A stretch of DNA of 63,918 nt, the filler included, from Aduncisulcus paluster (Eukaryota): assembly GCA_024181965.1 (NCBI GenBank). It is 10 parts of 10 records of this genome, joined end to end, with 100 filler letters (N's around TTAATTAATTAA, not from the genome) between each part and the next. Parts side by side here need not be neighbours in the genome. Positions count along the whole stretch, not along the records: positions 45,214 to 51,035 come from BQXS01011564.1; 9 more parts are not named here. One strand, 5' to 3'. Positions 45,114 to 63,006 of the stretch are shown in pieces. The position numbers were made by a program, and so were the translations under genes. Numbering within the stretch: position 1 is the stretch's first letter; every line of letters begins with the position of its first letter. Under the pieces are notes generated by a model. That model did no database searches. It was not told where the DNA came from and worked only from the letters and a program-made list of their open reading frames with translations.

Positions 45114-45213
45114 NNNNNNNNNNNNNNNNNNNNNNNNNNNNNNNNNNNNNNNNNNNNTTAATTAATTAANNNNNNNNNNNNNNNNNNNNNNNNNNNNNNN
45201 NNNNNNNNNNNNN

Positions 45214-46842
45214 GCCGAACTATTACATTCATTTGCCGAAAAGAAATGGGATAATTTTGACCTCGAAACCCAACTATTTTCTTCCATTTCCTCTTCTCTT
45301 TCTTCCATTTTACAGTTCTGCTCTGAGATCAACGATGTCCAGATATTGGGAAGAATTTTAGAAAGAATTAGACGTACTGTTAAATCAGAGTTCTCAAGAC
45401 GCAATCAAATCTCTCATGCATCTGCTTCCTCTTCTCTTTCCACTGTTCCCTCAACGAAAGCTCCATCGACTGAACATGATAGCACGATAGTACAGTATCC
45501 AGACACAGATAATCTCGAACATGACTCTGATATTTCCACTCCTGTTGTGTGTATCGATGGTGAAGTTGAAAGAGCTCCCTTTCAAAATGAACCTGCGTGT
45601 CCTGATCTGCCTCCTCCCGAGTCCTGTGAATTCCTCCAGTCTCTCTCCTCTCTCCTCCTCTCCCTTATTCCTCCTCTATCTGGCCGATGTTCTATTCTAT
45701 CAACTCTTTCTGAACGCTCAGCCTTACTCGAGACTCTTGACCAGCTCTGCGTGAAAGAAAAGATCCTCACAGATCGCATGGAACATGTTAGAATGACGAG
45801 GGGACGAATGTACCACACAGCCCTTGCTCAAATCGATGATGACCGTTCCCTTGTGAAAGACGAGAAGATCAAAGTCTGTGTGAGTATCCGTGAAAAGGAC
45901 GAGGAGCTATGCGATAAGGTTAAGGTCTTCAAATGTACGTGGGGTGATGGATTCAGCGTTTTAGACCAAGAGAGAGAAATTCAACTCGGTCTTTCTGCAC
46001 CAAAGACTGATATCGGTGTCGTTTCCCAGGAAGAAAATACTGAAAATATTCAAGACCATGAAGCTATTAAAGACGAAAAGAACGAAGGAGAAATTATTGA
46101 TACCTCAAAATCTCTTGATTACAAACCCTCTCTTCCTCTTTCTACTCCTCTTTCTACGAAGGATAGACCTTTTTTGCACAATGGTATAAATTTGAGTGAT
46201 GTTGTTAAGAAAGATCGTGATGAGTTTGTGAGCTGGTTAAAGAAAGAGATTAGTGATTCTCTGTTCTCGAGTATAGAATCCTCTATCGAAACCAAACGTA
46301 TCAGGCAAGCCAAAGAATTGAAGGTGCTAAGTCCATCTGAAGGAAGTCCTGAACGCGAGAAGGATATTATGACCAAAGCTGACGATGACGATGAACTGAA
46401 AGAGGAAGAGGAACTGAAAGAGGAAGAAGAATTGAAGGAAGAGTGGACAGAGGAAGAGGTTTCAGTGTCGATATTGCAAGCAATCGGTCTTGATATTAAA
46501 GACCAGGACCTCATAGAGCCAGGGAGAGAGACTGTAGTATTTGAGCAGGAACAACAAGCTATGCAAAAAGACCAAGAAGAGGAAGAGGGCAAAGATATGA
46601 TTGAAAAAAATGAACAAGAACCAGTCGAGATGGAAAGTATGCCACCCCCCGAATTCCAAGAGAGTAAGGAATCAGTTCAAAGTGAGCAGACAGATCTTGA
46701 TCAACATGAAAAAGAAAAGATCACTGATGAGCCTGAAGACAAATTGAAGCGAAGAAGGAAGAAGATCCATAAAAGACGTAGGAAGCTTGATGGTCTTAGT
46801 ATCACTCAGCTCTCTCAAGTTCCATTTGATCAACTTCTCTGA
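45214..46842 (+). CDS. Hypothetical protein with acidic C-terminus and basic tail; 5'-partial
   Basis: Frame open from the contig start (AELLHSF...) to TGA at 46842; ELKEEE repeats; KLKRRRKKIHKRRRK. Confidence 0.75.
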   Translation, partial: AELLHSFAEKKWDNFDLETQLFSSISSSLSSILQFCSEINDVQILGRILERIRRTVKSEFSRRNQISHASASSSLSTVPSTKAPSTEHDSTIVQYPDTDNLEHDSDISTPVVCIDGEVERAPFQNEPACPDLPPPESCEFLQSLSSLLLSLIPPLSGRCSILSTLSERSALLETLDQLCVKEKILTDRMEHVRMTRGRMYHTALAQIDDDRSLVKDEKIKVCVSIREKDEELCDKVKVFKCTWGDGFSVLDQEREIQLGLSAPKTDIGVVSQEENTENIQDHEAIKDEKNEGEIIDTSKSLDYKPSLPLSTPLSTKDRPFLHNGINLSDVVKKDRDEFVSWLKKEISDSLFSSIESSIETKRIRQAKELKVLSPSEGSPEREKDIMTKADDDDELKEEEELKEEEELKEEWTEEEVSVSILQAIGLDIKDQDLIEPGRETVVFEQEQQAMQKDQEEEEGKDMIEKNEQEPVEMESMPPPEFQESKESVQSEQTDLDQHEKEKITDEPEDKLKRRRKKIHKRRRKLDGLSITQLSQVPFDQLL

Positions 46843-47229
46843 TCCCTTACGTAACAAATTCTTACAATACAGTACACAAATTATTTGGAAGACAATTTCT
46901 TAATTAAAATCTTATTTATTCATCAAAGTTCTATTCCAATTCAAATGATTGATTCATGACTAATCCGACTGGATTCTGCCAACATTATACTGAATGATTA
47001 CGTGGTACTCAAAAGAATCCATTAATTGACTTATTATTGAACGCTGATAAATAATTCTATTATAATATCTATCTATATCTAATATCTTGTATCTCAATAA
47101 AGATATTTATAGTTACAGTATACAAATTGTTATATAACTATTACAAACAATATTAATGCCTGTCAACGAATAAGATAATAGAAGTAAACGGAACTATAAA
47201 AAAACAATACCGAGACGCAATGCAACAGT

Positions 47230-48204
47230 CTAGAGTTTTTTTGAGCATTCTTCATGAAACATTCCAATACAATCCAAGCCGATGGGATAAAAATCTGATG
47301 GTTTCTTCCATTCATGAGGGAATTCAGTCACTCGAGGAGATTGTGAAAGAGAGATAGAGTCATCAATCCAAAGACATGACAATCCACCAGAAAACCCCCT
47401 CGAACTTAGAGTAGAACCACAATAATCACAATATGGTGCACGAAATGATGAAAAATGCTGAGCAATAGACAGAATAACACGCTGTAAGCACTCAATTTCA
47501 ATCAGAGGAGTCCGAATTCGATGTTGAGAGACGATGAGTGTTTTCAAACGACGTGATAGGATTGATGTAACATTATTCAGCCATTCGTGTGCACAAAATC
47601 TTGGCGGAATATTCGGAAAACCAATTTCTTGCGGTAACAAAAAAAAGAATTGGTTATCAAGCGGAGCACAAGAAAACCAAACAATAACCCCACAGTTAAT
47701 CCGAACAACCACATTAAAGTATTGTTTAAAAGAAATTACCAAACCAACAATGTGTTTTTCTCGAGAAGAATAACTGATGGTCTTTTTTGGAATATCCTTC
47801 AGAGAAGGAATCGAAATTCCCTCGATTGGTTCTTTGGATGAAATAAGTTTTTCATAATCTCCAAATTTGCTCCAAAGACTATCATATGTCGCTATCTTTC
47901 CCGATGATTTTTCAATTGAATCAAAAATGGAAGAAATATGTTCAGAAAAACTGAGATAATCCATTTTAGACATAGAAGGTGGAATATAAACCGAAGGATA
48001 TGTGCAATAATCCTCATCACTCACATATAAAGGAGTAAAACTCAATATTGAATGTTTTCCATTCATTATATGACAAAACAATTCTAGTCTCTTTCTATCA
48101 TTAAGAAATAAAATATTTATGAGAAAAAAGCTTCAATAATAACAACAAATATTTCAAAAGAAACTAGAGCAATCAACATACATAAGTACATCATTTCGAT
48201 CCAT
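47230..48204 (-). CDS. Mediator subunit MED27-like protein, 2 exons (48204-48182, 48094-47230), 295 aa
   Basis: The 87-nt GTATGT...TAG intron 48181-48095 joins MDRNDVLI to KRLELFCH. C-terminal F.APYCDYCG..L...LW...MFHEEC matches the Med27 C2HC zinc-finger pattern (F..PC..CG..L...W...FH..C). Confidence 0.55.
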
Positions 48205-48350
48205 AAAACGTATCCAACTTGAGATTTAATTATATTATTGATATTAGCTTGTTTCAAAAAATCGTTTTTTTAAATATTATCTTCTATTGCAGAAAATAAC
48301 CAGAAACGATTCTATGACTTCTTCTTGAAAACAAAATACAAAACCATAAT

Positions 48351-48821
48351 ATGGGCTGTTGTTGTTCAAGTGCAGCTTATGCTGGAACTGAATTAGAAGG
48401 ATCACCCTCTCCTTATGTCCGCGGATCTTGTTGTTATAGTTCTCGACAACAAATGATTTATGATGGACTCTTACCTGAAGGTATTTTATTCTTTGAAAAA
48501 GGTGTTCGTGTTAAAATGAGGATTAGAAATCTTGTTACTCCAAAGAGGTTGATTGGAGCGAAGTTAAGCATTTCATACGGAATAGCTGCTCTTACAAAAA
48601 CAAAAATTCTCATCATGCCTGGTTCATCTCGAGATGCCTTAAGAATTGATTGGAGGACTTTGTTTGACACTGCCATAATCTCAGAAGATCCTAAAGATGG
48701 AATTACCATTCATGTCGACTTCGATAATGGAGGAATGGCAGAATACACTGTATTATTAACTCAACCACGATTATTTATGGAAAAAATTGATGAAATGAGA
48801 GCTTCTTTTGCCTCAAGGTGA
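48351..48821 (+). CDS. Small dually acylated (MGCCCS) protein with probable PH-like domain
   Basis: N-terminal Gly2/Cys3-5/Ser6 myristoylation plus palmitoylation signature; beta-rich core GIAALTKTKILI...LRIDW and a terminal helix. Confidence 0.75.
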   Translation: MGCCCSSAAYAGTELEGSPSPYVRGSCCYSSRQQMIYDGLLPEGILFFEKGVRVKMRIRNLVTPKRLIGAKLSISYGIAALTKTKILIMPGSSRDALRIDWRTLFDTAIISEDPKDGITIHVDFDNGGMAEYTVLLTQPRLFMEKIDEMRASFASR

Positions 48822-48976
48822 TCGTGACATATTATCTTTGCTGATTGGATAATAATTATCCAACAAATATCTTTCTTCTTCTTCTGTTTATAAAAATTTC
48901 AGAACATTTTTATTTTTCGTTTACAAGTTGATTTGCCGTATACTGTACTATACTATAAATCTATGAGCTATTCATT

Positions 48977-49040
48977 TAGCAAAAGATTGCCAAAACCACC
49001 ATGGTCCGACTACCTACAAGTAGGTTATCAGTACCGGTGC
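48977..49040 (-). ncRNA. Candidate Fanzor omegaRNA scaffold
   Basis: Begins 26 nt after the Fanzor stop. CACC-GGU-A-CUGAU-A-ACCUA(CUUG)UAGGU-A-GUCGG-ACC-AU-GGUG long stem, then UGGCAA(UCUU)UUGCUA hairpin. Three G-U pairs form only on the minus strand. Confidence 0.6.
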
Positions 49041-49066
49041 GAAAAAAATAGTAAAAAATAGTATAA

Positions 49067-49525
49067 CTAAGGAGAAAAAGCTTGTAGATCATCTACAGGA
49101 TGATGATCATCCAAAGAACTCGGACGTATGAAAGCTGATGGAAAAGGCTGGCAAAAATGTTTTTTTAGTCCAAGAATAGCAATATTATATGCAGCTGAAT
49201 AGTCCCTATTGCCTTCAAAACCACACTTTCCACACTTTCTCATTCGCCTTTTTTCATCGACCGTTGACAATTCATTGTGGCAACATGGACACAACTTGGA
49301 CGTATGGTATTCATCAACTTCAATGAATATACCCCCTCTTGATTGAACTGTTTGTTTTAATTTGTTCGGAAAGGAAGAGGTACTGGACGTAGATCTATAG
49401 CCTTTATATGTGGCTTTAAATGGTTTATCTCTACCCAGGTGTGCCCGTCCACAGTCCCCATAGCAGACCAACAGCTGTTTTTGTTCTTTTTTGGCCCTCT
49501 TCAGAAGTGTGGAAGCATACTTCAT
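49067..49525 (-). CDS. Fanzor/TnpB-family RNA-guided nuclease, C-terminal fragment (RuvC-II, Zn finger, RuvC-III); RuvC-I absent
   Basis: LLVCYGD...KG..S...IEVDEYHTSKLCPCCH...CGKC....NRDYSAAYNI...P.AF.RP, the Fanzor-type motif series. Confidence 0.85.
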   Translation of the reverse strand: MKYASTLLKRAKKEQKQLLVCYGDCGRAHLGRDKPFKATYKGYRSTSSTSSFPNKLKQTVQSRGGIFIEVDEYHTSKLCPCCHNELSTVDEKRRMRKCGKCGFEGNRDYSAAYNIAILGLKKHFCQPFPSAFIRPSSLDDHHPVDDLQAFSP

Positions 49526-49672
49526 GGGATACTATCTGGCTTGAAGCCACAAGTAATTGTTACTGCCTTGTATTCAGATGATTCGTCTTATTAAATAAAT
49601 AATTAATATTAATAAAATGCATATAAAATTAAACTTAAATAAAAACAGCTTATAATAATGACACATACCCAT
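49522..49672 (-). pseudogene. Spliced N-terminal remnant of the Fanzor gene (exons 49672-49669, 49586-49522; MDESSEYKAVTITCGFKPDSIP*)
   Basis: ATG G|GTATGT...TAAG|AC GAA defines an 82-nt AT-rich intron 49668-49587 with the host donor consensus. The peptide's TGA overlaps the ATG of the RuvC fragment. Confidence 0.55.
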
Positions 49673-49849
49673 TTTTAAAAAAAAGATGGACTTTTTGACG
49701 ACAGAACGAAGAAAAAAATTGTGTAAGTATAGCAAAAGCTATCATATATTTGTAATTTTATTTGACTTTTTCATTTTTACTGTTGATCTCCTGTCATCCT
49801 TGTCAAAGTCATGCTTCTCAGTTTCGGGAAGAAATACAATAATTTCAAT

Positions 49850-51035
49850 ATGGGGAGTACAGATTCAAAATATAAGGGCAATTCCATTGCTTCTTCTGTT
49901 CCTCTTCATCATGTTGAAATCAATTTTGTCAGTACCTCCGCAAGAGAGGTGAAAATAAGAGGATATACAAGAGGAGGAGAATGGAATGATTATAAAATGT
50001 CGAAAATATCGTCAGAAACATTTAAATTGAGTTTAGAATTACCCAAGGGCTTATTTTTTTTATAATTTTATTGTGGACTCCACATCGGATGGGATCTCCA
50101 GTTCATCAACCCACTAAAGATGTCACTCTGAGTGCTCAGCGGGCTGCGACACCTTCCTTGGTGAAGGAAAGGGATAGATCTTCCTCTCATTCCTCTGGAA
50201 GAAGCGTTGATCATCGTCCTCCAAAGGGTAGAGACGAGAGGTTTAGAAGCTCTAGTCGTGCTGATATGATTCCACGAGCCCCCATTCCACTCGAAGAATC
50301 GTTTAATCTCTTCAAAGAGAAATTCAGTCAGGAGATGCCTTCTCTGAGTTGGTTTGTCTCCAAAGAACGAAATACCCCTCAAGGATAGATATAAAGCCGC
50401 CCAAGATTGGTGGAAATATGGTACAGATCGCTGTGATATCATCGCCAAAAAAAAGAAGGCATCAACAACAGAGAAACAAGAGGCTTTGATTTATTTGGCC
50501 TTTTCAATAATGATTGATCCTCTGGGAACATCCCAGCCTTCAAAACACCAAGGAGCTCTTGATCTTTGTGTTGAATTCAGTCAGAACAAGAACCAATCCA
50601 CCTTTTTCCCAGCATTCTTCATTGCAGCTCATTTTCTGGCACGTGAAGGGGCATTTGCTCCTGCCCAAAATGCTTTACATCAATTCTTAATTGTAACTGA
50701 TGTCAGAGTTTCAAGAGGAACTTGCAAAGAAGAAAGGCTTAAAAAAAACAACTCAAGATCCTTTAAAAACCGAATATAAATGCCCATTATATGATAAATT
50801 GCCCAATATTTCGATGCTAAGGATGTGGACATGGTATTTATTTGCTCATATTCTTGCCAGAAACCCCGAAAGTGATCCTACACATGTTGCTATTCCCGTG
50901 AGGCGAGGCATGATGGAAATTTCCGGATTTGATCCTTCTTCAATTCCCAATTTTGCCCAACTTCCTCCCCTTTTGTTGGTATTAGCACGTATGGCTCAAA
51001 GAGTCGGTAATCTTGATGCTACAGAGGAGTTGTAC
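49850..51035 (+). CDS. N-myristoylated CBM48 (AMPK-beta-like glycogen-binding) protein with helical/TPR-like C-terminus; four +1 frameshifts; 3'-partial
   Basis: MGSTDS start; AREVKIRG....W.DYKM....F.LSLELPKG.F.YNFIVD..W pattern of CBM48 once single extra bases are skipped near 50054-50061, ~50086, ~50360 and ~50700. Confidence 0.65.
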
Positions 51036-51137
51036 NNNNNNNNNNNNNNNNNNNNNNNNNNNNNNNNNNNNNNNNNNNNTTAATTAATTAANNNNNNNNN
51101 NNNNNNNNNNNNNNNNNNNNNNNNNNNNNNNNNNNAA

Positions 51138-56127: not shown

Positions 56128-56234
56128 CGGCAACTGACTGGAGTCGAACCAATACTTTCCACACAAATCTAAGAGTTTTTAATCAACTGATTTAAACGCT
56201 GTAGATGGATGTTCTTCCATTGAACTACTGTACC
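56128..56234 (-). tRNA. Intron-containing tRNA-like gene or pseudogene, apparent anticodon ACA (Cys)
   Basis: D-arm GTTC-AATGGAA-GAAC, anticodon stem TCCAT/GTGGA with loop CT-ACA-G, 35-nt insert after position 37 (56198-56164), T-arm ATTGG-TTCGACT-CCAGT, then a T6 terminator. The acceptor stem is imperfect. Confidence 0.55.
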
Positions 56235-60681: not shown

Positions 60682-63006
60682 GAAGGTAAATGCGATGGCA
60701 CTGATGACACAGATGGTACTGGTGGCACTGATGATATACAATTATCCATATCGAAACTACATGGAAGTAGAAGAATATCTAGAACTGCAGCTGGAGGTAA
60801 GGAAAGCAGAAAAGATGAAGAGGAGGAAGAGCAGATATCCAGTCGTCAACATTCAACTCATTCTATTCTTTCTCATTCCAAAAATAGCAATATATCAACA
60901 ACATCCTCATTATTACGCACTCATCCTGAACAATATAGTGCCACTCTCTCACATTCCTCTTCTTCTTTATCTTCCTCTTCCTCTTCCTCTTCCTCTTCTT
61001 CCTCTTCTTCCTCTTCTTCTTATAACCTTCCATCTGCTATGTATTCTTCCTCTATTTCCTCCCTATCTTCTTCCAGGGGACCATATTGTCCCAATACTCT
61101 CCCTGTAACTTCCTCTTCTTCCTCCTCTCTGGCTAGATTCAAGAGTATTCTGGCCACGATCGTCAGGAAATACACTGAGGTGCTCTCTGTAGTAGAAGTT
61201 GAAGAGGAGAGGAGGAAACGTGATGAATGTCAGACCAGTGTCTTGGCTACTTCCTCTTCTTCCTCTTCTTCCTCTTCTTCCTCTTCTTCTTCGACAAATG
61301 AATCATTGTCAAATCTTTCAGCACAAGGAACAACGATGCGAGCTGGTGACACTCATCAACATGAAGGTGATCCATCAACACATCTTCAAGAACAGCCATC
61401 CTCTTCCAGTTCCTCTTCTTGTGGTGTTTCTCATATGCTTCGTGGGACGGTAGGATTACCGACAATTATCGGTTCAACCGATATAAAACCATCCTCCTCT
61501 TCAGATCTGGGAGATATCAGTAATAGTTCTGGCAATGCCCTTGTTGCTGATAGTATTGTTGATAGTACCAGTCGTGACTGTGTTCATGTAGATCATACAA
61601 AACAATATGAAGAATTATGCATGTTATTTGCATCTAATCCCGTTCTAAAGCAACTTATTCAAGATATTATTAAGCAAGTTAATCGAGGTTGTCCAATGTT
61701 TTTGGTTGAGGAACATGTAGGAAGTGATCTTGCAACGTTTGTCCTTCTATCGATTTTACAGGCCTCAGATTGGATGTTACAACAAGAATCAAGTATGTTG
61801 AGTGGTGTCAATGGTAGTGTTGGTGGTAGTATGGGTTCATCCAGTAGTATAATTGGTGATAGAGGTAGTGGATCTGGATCTTTGGGTAGTAGCAGTATTT
61901 CTGAAGGAGGCTCTGGAAACAGCAAGGAAATGCCACATTTATTTGAGAAATGTTCTATTGTTATCGACCGACGTGATATGCTATTGTTAATCCCAAAGAC
62001 TGGTGTGTTGTTCCTTCAGGTGCAGTCTTACCTCATCCATCTATTTTCATGCCTAACAACTCAACTACATTCTTCTCACAGGTCTAAATATAGAACTGTT
62101 GCTCAATTCATTCATATATGTTTCGATGTGTTACCCTCTTCACCTTTTGCTTCCTTATTCCAGAACTTCACTCGCACACATGGAAGCAAACGAGCTCTGA
62201 TGCGTGACCTGTCTGAATTGCAGGAAGAAGTCAGCGGTCGTAAGAAAAGCAGTATCAAGGGAAGTGATGCCATTGTGCATAAAAGTTATCGTCTCCAGGC
62301 TAGAACATTGCCTTATATGCAGGCTACTACAAGGAAGCACCCGTCATCCACTCATCTACCGGCTGCAAACATTAGTTCTCATCCACAAACTATCCCCCAT
62401 CATCATTCTTCCTCTTCTGTCATGTCAGTTCCTAGTATTCATGGCAGTAATATTTCTTCTTCTTCCTCTTCCTCCTCCTCCTCCTCCTCTTCTTCTTCTT
62501 CTTCTTCTTCTTCTTCTTCTTCTTCTTCTTCTTCTTCTTCTTGTTCTTCAAAACCACCAACAGGAATGCCTGGTTCTGGTATTTCTTCCTCTTCCTCTTC
62601 TTCTTCCTCTTCGTCTGGTGTCATTGGTCAGGGATGCAGTGTGGGTATGCCATCACATCTGCCGGTTTCTTCTTCGGTTCCAGGCGGTAGTATTGGCAGT
62701 GTTGTCGGCGGTTCCACAGTACAAAGCGGCTCCACCTCATCTTCAGCCGGTAGTGTTGCCGGTTCTATCGGCAGTGCCGGTGCTCATGGCAGTGCCGGTG
62801 CTCATGGCAGTGCCGGTGCTCATGGCAGTGCTCATCCTCACTCACATCAAGCATTCATATCCTCTGGAATGCAGTATATTACTCCCCAACAACAACAACA
62901 ACAGGGTGTTCCGAGACAATATTCCTCTCTCGATTTGCACAGGATGACAGAGGCAGCCAACAGAGCAGCTTCTTCGATAAACAAACGAAAAGGGAAGAAA
63001 AAATGA
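60682..63006 (+). CDS. Hypothetical Ser/Gly-rich low-complexity protein; 5'-partial
   Basis: Frame open from 60682 into ORF 61039-63006; poly-Ser tracts flank a helical core. Confidence 0.75.
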   Translation, partial: EGKCDGTDDTDGTGGTDDIQLSISKLHGSRRISRTAAGGKESRKDEEEEEQISSRQHSTHSILSHSKNSNISTTSSLLRTHPEQYSATLSHSSSSLSSSSSSSSSSSSSSSSSYNLPSAMYSSSISSLSSSRGPYCPNTLPVTSSSSSSLARFKSILATIVRKYTEVLSVVEVEEERRKRDECQTSVLATSSSSSSSSSSSSSSTNESLSNLSAQGTTMRAGDTHQHEGDPSTHLQEQPSSSSSSSCGVSHMLRGTVGLPTIIGSTDIKPSSSSDLGDISNSSGNALVADSIVDSTSRDCVHVDHTKQYEELCMLFASNPVLKQLIQDIIKQVNRGCPMFLVEEHVGSDLATFVLLSILQASDWMLQQESSMLSGVNGSVGGSMGSSSSIIGDRGSGSGSLGSSSISEGGSGNSKEMPHLFEKCSIVIDRRDMLLLIPKTGVLFLQVQSYLIHLFSCLTTQLHSSHRSKYRTVAQFIHICFDVLPSSPFASLFQNFTRTHGSKRALMRDLSELQEEVSGRKKSSIKGSDAIVHKSYRLQARTLPYMQATTRKHPSSTHLPAANISSHPQTIPHHHSSSSVMSVPSIHGSNISSSSSSSSSSSSSSSSSSSSSSSSSSSSSCSSKPPTGMPGSGISSSSSSSSSSSGVIGQGCSVGMPSHLPVSSSVPGGSIGSVVGGSTVQSGSTSSSAGSVAGSIGSAGAHGSAGAHGSAGAHGSAHPHSHQAFISSGMQYITPQQQQQQGVPRQYSSLDLHRMTEAANRAASSINKRKGKKK
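62453..62541 (+). repeat. (TCT/TCC)n poly-Ser microsatellite
   Basis: About 29 consecutive Ser codons. Confidence 0.9.
62770..62831 (+). repeat. Coding 18-bp tandem repeat x3.4 (GSAGAH)
   Basis: GGCAGTGCCGGTGCTCAT three times plus a partial unit. Confidence 0.9.

Follow-up and report, generated by a model that had tools for sequence, protein, structure and literature searches.

Results

Organization of the locus

Our analysis covers a stretch of 63,918 nt, here called the window, from Aduncisulcus paluster, a free-living metamonad of the Fornicata. The draft assembly of this organism consists of 25,863 contigs with an N50 of 4.6 kb (PMC9933649). The window is not a single molecule; it consists of short contigs connected through linkers with 44 N + TTAATTAATTAA + 44 N (or 20 N), and features cannot be read across the joints. 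Its 22 runs of N lie between 2144 and 60680, for example at 45114-45213 and 51036-51135, and the locus described here is located on the piece 45214-51035. On the minus strand of this piece, an open reading frame (ORF) of 152 codons is followed by a T-rich spacer, two predicted stem-loops (SL1 and SL2) and unique sequence. The coordinates of all features are collected in Table 1.

Table 1. Features of the A. paluster locus, with positions as counted along the window
Feature	Position	Strand	Description and evidence
152-aa ORF, C-terminal piece of a Fanzor1-type nuclease	49067-49525	minus	ORF list, Pfam, paralogue alignment, profile
T-rich spacer, 26 nt	49041-49066	minus	other copies match only partly, to about 49045-49060
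Stem-loop 1 (SL1)	48997-49039	minus	17-bp interrupted stem, CUUG loop, 2 G.U pairs; folds
Stem-loop 2 (SL2)	48975-48994	minus	5-8 bp, UCUU loop, 3′ end ...CUUUUGCUAA; folds
Core exactly common to other copies	48979-49037	minus	~29x flank depth; placed from contig ends
Unique flank past the element end, putative guide	48957-48978	minus	single-copy depth below 48979; loose ends 48979/48975
AT-rich stretch in place of the remaining Fanzor gene	49534-49700		itself repeated; contig depth

The 152-aa ORF matches the Pfam family PF07282 (Cas12f1-like TNB domain) with an E-value of 1.2e-15. It comprises a GD-motif region, the sequence VDEYHTSK, a zinc finger of the form CxxC...CxxC and the motif NRD...AAxNI. 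The residues of the TNB zinc finger and of the RuvC-III motif (C79/C82/C98/C101, R107, D108, N114 and I115) are present and conserved across the family. The frame is closed by a TAG codon (49067-49069) located 26 nt before SL1, so that an earlier reading of the locus, which was made without database searches and is called the sequence-only reading below, was correct in placing a Fanzor stop codon just 5′ of a structured element. It was also correct in regarding the nuclease as deleted. A complete Fanzor1 protein would include WED, REC and RuvC-I, and all that the window copy retains is a C-terminus of 152 aa, starting at the GD-motif region.

The public runs that contain the stretch are X1 (probably DNA) and X2 (guessed to be RNA), neither of which is recorded as RNA. 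At a likeness of at least 80%, 50 contigs of X1 and 43 contigs of X2 were aligned to 48501-49800. Both runs come from one sample, perhaps the source sample of the assembly, and they may show the same loci twice; they are therefore not independent support for each other.

According to these contigs the Fanzor gene is truncated at 49533/49534. A contig of X2 departs from the window at 49533 and continues with codons for KFGGTIRRD, which is also found in the A. paluster protein P0001. Further Fanzor sequence in the window was not found by tblastn. The AT-rich stretch that takes the place of the remaining gene reaches 4-6 times the depth of the flank in X1, with loose ends at 49547, 49642 and 49683 among the matches listed, and is almost missing from X2, whose contigs cover 48501-49556 and not 49557-49688. 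Possibly it represents another mobile element whose insertion or recombination cut the Fanzor gene. A loose end of nine A was seen in X2 at 49628. The five larger ORFs near the locus (498 aa with glutamate-rich repeats, 283 aa, 156 aa, 141 aa and 126 aa), located at 45346-48821 and 50068-51083, gave no Pfam match at E <= 0.01.

Predicted secondary structure

Folding of the minus strand at 48957-49040 (84 nt) resulted in a minimum energy of -26.5 kcal/mol. Shuffled versions of this sequence had a mean of -17.0 with a standard deviation of 2.9 (z -3.32), and none out of 200 was as stable. For the plus strand of the same segment we obtained -19.5 kcal/mol (z -2.68), and 2 of 200 shuffles were as good. 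When the 62-nt core is folded alone, the values are -21.1 on the minus and -15.1 on the plus strand. The Fanzor-sense fold is better by 6-7 kcal/mol because of its G.U pairs. Two of these lie in the stem of SL1 and one in SL2, so that the three wobbles noticed on this strand in the sequence-only reading hold.

The same reading had described a 17-bp interrupted stem with a CUUG loop and a terminal hairpin of 6 bp. On refolding, the former was recovered at 49039-48997 as three runs of 7+5+5 bp and the latter at 48994-48975 with 7-8 bp and a UCUU loop. SL1 and SL2 were both retained when 156 nt were folded. As far as a prediction from one sequence can go, the two hairpins are thus confirmed at these positions. 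They also form the GC-richer island in AT-rich DNA that had been noted: 30 of the 62 nucleotides of the core are G or C (48%), compared with 33% in the bin 48001-50000.

The stability of the core was compared with that of all 62-nt segments of the 63.9-kb window, taken on both strands in steps of 5. As well as or better than the core folded 77 of 24,836 segments (0.3%), and the fold is therefore unusual, yet not unique. The most stable 62-nt folds of the window are found at 62736-62830 on the plus strand, where a GC-rich tandem repeat of 18 nt lies in an apparent coding region and not in an RNA gene.

Searches with known RNA models gave nothing at the locus. A scan of the whole window with Rfam yielded no match there, which counts against the interpretation as an omegaRNA module given below, and at 48000-50000 no Rfam match was obtained at E up to 10 except for two weak chance matches to RNase P at 49689-49809. 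A tRNA scan found none at the locus. Elsewhere in the window, Rfam gave a tRNA match at 56129-56234 on the minus strand (30.2 bits, gathering threshold 29), whose length of 106 nt may indicate an intron-bearing tRNA gene; ARAGORN reported no tRNA there in its default mode. A reading of the unit as snoRNA or SINE was also considered; no box C motif was seen by eye and there is no tRNA-like part. Among predicted peptides that read through the unit (a 42-aa ORF on the plus strand) there was no candidate. A scan of bacterial type gave 3 promoter-like sites vs 2.6 expected and 0 terminators; these are bacterial models and not relevant to a eukaryote.

Copies of the structured unit and their boundaries

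Within the window the unit occurs once. A 44-nt pattern of the core with up to 3 mismatches and a 22-nt pattern of its end each found only their own match, blastn and tblastn gave no other copy of the core or of Fanzor, and a repeat search found no partner. An inverted partner or left end was found neither in the 5.8-kb contig nor in the window, and this is a second point against the omegaRNA interpretation. The left end is missing at this locus because of the truncation at 49533. Scans for the exact core pattern in viral, metagenome and genome contig collections returned 0 matches.

The contigs of the public runs show that the unit is repeated in the sample. In X1, a contig of 17 kb with a depth of 1,346 spans 48501-49008 and represents unique flank. 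Adjacent to it, a unitig of 276 nt (49008-49283) has zero mismatches and a depth of 2,665, i.e. twofold. Therefore a second Fanzor copy agrees with the window from the tail of the ORF through stop codon and spacer up to and including the first 33 nt of the structure. This second copy is presumably that of P0001, and it diverges from the window copy within the unit or at its end. The summed contig depth in the bin 48985-49028 is much higher, with 38,861 vs 1,346 for the flank in X1 (~29x) and 9,266 vs 218 in X2 (~42x). As summed depth is not a formal copy number, we read 29x as tens of copies.

Two expectations that came with the sequence-only reading are borne out in part by these data, namely that the scaffold is not single-copy, as indicated by the depth in X1, and that conservation ends sharply near 48977, as described below. 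In addition, the second Fanzor copy, which belongs to the same subfamily, has the tail of the ORF in common with the window together with 33 nt or more of the structure.

The extent of the repeat was deduced from contig ends. Position 49008 is where the 1x contig stops and the 2x unitig begins, and it equals 48978+30 as well as 49038-30. If the word length of the contigs is taken to be 31 letters, these ends point to an exact repeat at 48979-49037. Accordingly, the two copies linked to Fanzor probably differ from the other copies at 49038. The sole indel reported is located at 48992 (one contig per run), in the unpaired U-run between the hairpins.

On the outer side, contigs depart from the window at 48979 (2 in X1, 1 in X2), 48975 (1 in X2) and 48994 (1 in X1), among the matches listed. 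The sharp end of conservation that had been predicted at 48977 was thus found within 2-3 nt, at 48979 (three contigs in two rows) or at 48975 (one row), among the matches listed. Copies that diverge at 48979 go on as CATCT in a loose-end consensus of 30 letters. With this continuation the closing pair of SL2 would be G-C, which is G.U in the window. This change and the indel in the unpaired U-run are the only hints of covariation among the copies. One copy has the TAAA of the window and then diverges at 48975. A Helitron-type end, which consists of a hairpin and CTRR, was also considered and dropped, since the terminal letters vary between the classes of copies and no left end is present.

On the ORF side, departures are found at 49047 (3 contigs in X1, 4 in X2) and at 49045 (1 in X2), among the matches listed. 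Beyond 49047 the loose-end consensus follows the window for another 13 letters or so, lacking one A, so that those copies are homologous to the window up to about 49060, within a few bases of the stop codon. Most copies leave the window 5-20 nt from the ORF-side edge of the core, at 49045-49060 (8 contigs in 3 rows, among the matches listed). Such copies may represent solo ends or a miniature element of their own, and this also counts against the omegaRNA interpretation. Repeat and predicted structure have the same edges. Taken together, the unit is conserved among its copies and variable beyond the right end, as known from contig ends of one sample.

The Fanzor family of A. paluster

Among 356 longer candidate proteins, the 152-aa ORF has a single close relative, an NCBI model from A. 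paluster itself. At E <= 0.001 a HMMER search with the ORF yielded 167 proteins, two of which reached <= 1e-10; the best ones again come from A. paluster. At least three subfamilies can be distinguished in this organism: subfamily A with the window fragment and P0001, subfamily B with P0002 and P0152, and subfamily C with P0003, P0154, P0155 and P0153 together with the partial relatives P0158 and P0159. Subfamily C includes full-length proteins of 559-560 aa, and full-length paralogues are accordingly encoded elsewhere in the genome (P0003 with 559 aa, P0154 with 560 aa). In the paralogue alignment the full-length members carry a GIDPGR motif (RuvC-I); common to all aligned members are the YGD motif, VDEYHTSK, the four zinc-finger cysteines and NRD..AAxNI.

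From YPMKYAS to AFIR, P0001 and the window fragment agree in 135 of 136 aa. Upstream of this part, P0001 has 42 additional Fanzor residues that are missing in the window. In its NCBI gene model, the C-terminus of Fanzor (to ...AFIR) is fused via a predicted intron to a dephospho-CoA kinase. As the latter is absent from the window, P0001 represents a different locus. The model itself appears to be an annotation chimera that combines the remnant of a transposon with a neighbouring host gene.

For the affiliation of the family, a profile (A2) of 17 sequences was used, which comprises the full-length A. paluster paralogues and distant relatives and leaves the window fragment out. Its top matches among solved structures are SpuFz1 (8gkh, E 2.4e-26), PpFz1 (9cf0, 2.3e-24) and GtFz1 (9cer, 6.2e-22), followed by TnpB and Cas12f from 1.9e-17 downward. 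The A. paluster family is therefore of Fanzor1 type, and by this profile it is closer to Fanzor1 than to Fanzor2, TnpB or Cas12. A phmmer search with P0003 alone against the solved structures gave no Fanzor match; the profile alone found them. Protein identity in alignment A2 is about 15-21% between A. paluster and relatives outside Aduncisulcus. In UniRef, the A. paluster proteins are named 'Cas12f1-like TNB domain-containing protein'.

Relatives were also collected from metagenomes, where 90 pattern matches (51 confirmed) led to 47 loci with a best-segment identity of 25-50%. The comparison of the unit with these 47 loci by blastn gave matches to A/T runs only. At this degree of likeness, the metagenome relatives are too distant to test the RNA.

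Discussion

A probable right-end omegaRNA module

The structured core at 49040-48979 lies on the same strand as the Fanzor ORF, between its stop codon and the right end of the element at 48979/48975. As this layout matches published Fanzor1 systems, we take 48975-49066 to be the right-end omegaRNA module belonging to a 5′-truncated Fanzor1 transposon in A. paluster, and we consider this interpretation probable.

An RNA transcribed in the sense of Fanzor would fold as SL1 (49039-48997) followed by SL2 (48994-48975) and would present an omegaRNA scaffold of about 62 nt. Transcription across the element end at 48979/48975 would add some 15-20 nt of flank as guide. The flank at 48957-48978 is a putative guide by analogy with SpuFz1; it would begin with (UAAA)UGAAUAGCUCAUAG at the window locus, with its start at 48978 or 48974. 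A Fanzor protein loaded with this RNA would cut DNA that matches the flank, that is, unoccupied insertion sites beside a TAM, and such cutting may help the element to persist or to spread. Because the nuclease gene is cut at 49533 and 152 aa are left, any RNA made here could act only with a Fanzor protein from elsewhere. Judged by depth, most other copies of the core are likewise without this ORF tail and resemble the 'ghost' loci of Spizellomyces in this respect.

The omegaRNA interpretation of the sequence-only reading is upheld in part. The stable fold with its strand bias, the Fanzor1-type protein, the second Fanzor copy, the high copy depth and the sharp boundary near 48977 are observed here and speak for it; that the RNA is produced, processed, bound by Fanzor, guided by its flank and active in trans is what we infer. 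The idea of a guide-only cassette is plausible. It has already been published in the form of the ghost loci and is not new.

Alternative explanations

The most serious alternative does without any guide RNA. The unit would then be a terminal or recognition hairpin of a transposon (or of a miniature derivative) which is used as DNA by the transposase, and the window copy would be a dead relic. A sharp outer boundary and high depth are indeed typical of any transposon end, the long stem is nearly palindromic so that the plus strand folds too, and the length of SL1 is unlike that of the solved Fz1 scaffolds, as far as these are described in the accessible parts of the literature. However, the right end doubles as omegaRNA scaffold in every Fanzor/TnpB system studied, according to the same sources, and the Fanzor-sense strand folds better by the 6-7 kcal/mol that are owed to G.U pairs. 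Two predicted hairpins followed by flank and a distance of 88 nt from the stop codon also match what is reported for SpuFz1. We therefore regard this alternative as unlikely.

Another possibility is that the unit is an independent dispersed repeat, either a small foldback element (MITE) or an unknown small-RNA gene, with no functional tie to Fanzor. This explanation is weakened by the fact that both Fanzor copies of subfamily A carry the unit at the same distance from the stop codon, as shown by the 2x unitig, and by the shared boundary of divergence: the unique sequence of the window starts at 48979, where other copies diverge and where the end of the Fanzor element is expected. The lack of an Rfam or tRNA match speaks in the same direction. 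What makes an independent repeat attractive is that, judged by depth, ~27 of ~29 copies are not joined to an ORF tail, and that a boundary 5-20 nt from the core on the ORF side would delimit a compact element of ~62-82 nt. On balance we judge it quite improbable. The idea that the hairpin arose by chance, in a 3′ untranslated region or an intergenic spacer, can practically be dismissed: AT-rich eukaryotic spacers contain hairpins occasionally, and 77 of the 24,836 segments of the same size fold as well, but no shuffled sequence (0/200) was as stable, and a 59-nt core recurs at ~29x depth with sharp edges that are those of the structure.

Significance

If the RNA is made and loaded, the right-end omegaRNA module would extend working Fanzor1/omegaRNA systems to Metamonada. 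Its scaffold of ~62 nt would rank among the shortest natural ones, which makes it interesting with regard to compact genome editors. The excess of scaffolds over nuclease genes would be the second or third natural example of ghost guide loci, and it bears on the question whether Fanzor serves transposons in trans.

A wider scenario is tentative at best. In it, A. paluster would run an active Fanzor1 system in which the ~62-nt scaffold has been amplified to tens of copies with absent or broken ORF, each of them providing a different flank guide for the few intact nucleases whose genes lie elsewhere. This would amount to a natural multi-guide repertoire and to the first RNA-guided nuclease system described in Metamonada, which we hold to be doubtful for the time being. 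A literature search, which covered papers outside subscription and without their supplements, found no paper that joins Aduncisulcus with Fanzor or TnpB and none that joins Fanzor with Metamonada. The accessible part of a survey preprint (10.1101/2023.08.09.552727) contains no metamonad term.

Comparison with known systems

In all Fanzor and TnpB systems studied, as described in the accessible parts of two reports (PMC10432273, PMC10530073), the guide RNA originates from the right end of the element and the guide from its flank. The comparisons below draw on the same kind of partial text.

The nuclease of A. paluster is of Fanzor1 type like SpuFz1 of Spizellomyces punctatus (Saito et al. 2023), and the SpuFz1 structure 8gkh is the best structural-sequence match of the A. 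paluster family. In SpuFz1, a region of ~80 nt separates the stop codon from the 3′ IR (PMC10432273), compared with 88 nt from the stop codon to 48979 in A. paluster. The scaffold ends at the element boundary in both cases, with 75 nt in SpuFz1 and a core of ~62 nt here, which is a likeness in layout. Beyond the boundary both show a variable flank, which in SpuFz1 serves as a guide of 14-15 nt (PMC10432273). For Fz1 in general, omegaRNAs of 75-150 nt including the guide are reported (PMC11423790). In SpuFz1 and PpFz1 the order is SL1, a single SL2 and then the guide (PMC11423790); in A. paluster, two stem-loops followed directly by the flank are predicted. However, SL1 has 7 bp in the three solved complexes of GtFz1, SpuFz1 and PpFz1 (PMC11423790), whereas 17 bp are predicted here, and this is a further point against the omegaRNA module. 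The inverted repeats, the CA/TAM motif and the left end of SpuFz1 were not seen at the window locus. Moreover, the host of SpuFz1 is a fungus, whereas A. paluster is a metamonad and its system is known from sequence alone.

The TnpB omegaRNA (reRNA) of IS200/IS605 elements such as ISDra2 combines a right-end RNA with a flank guide, as proposed here, and TnpB shares the RuvC domain and the zinc-finger TNB domain with the A. paluster nuclease (PMC10432273). The omegaRNAs of bacteria terminate close to the 3′ region of the tnpB ORF, as stated in the discussion of PMC10530073, whereas in A. paluster the whole structured part is located downstream of the stop codon. The host and the nuclease clade (Fanzor1) are eukaryotic in our case.

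Scaffold copies outnumber nuclease copies in S. punctatus as well as in A. paluster, where the core reaches ~29x and the ORF tail 2x. For Spu-1, 134 ORF-less ghost loci with a retained omegaRNA region were described beside 42 Fz loci in the parts of PMC10432273 available to us; ghost omegaRNAs supported SpuFz1 editing in human cells, and an action in trans was proposed. Similarly, Chlamydomonas reinhardtii has 6 Fanzor copies and 20 extra copies of the fRNA (PMC10530073). These ghost loci and extra fRNA copies resemble the window locus in having a scaffold with the nuclease gene absent or broken. A ghost locus has both ends and no nuclease ORF; the window locus differs in keeping 152 codons and in having no left end, and is not a clean IR-to-IR ghost element. 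The locus is a good example of a design that has been published before and is now seen in a new eukaryotic supergroup; it does not represent a new mechanism.
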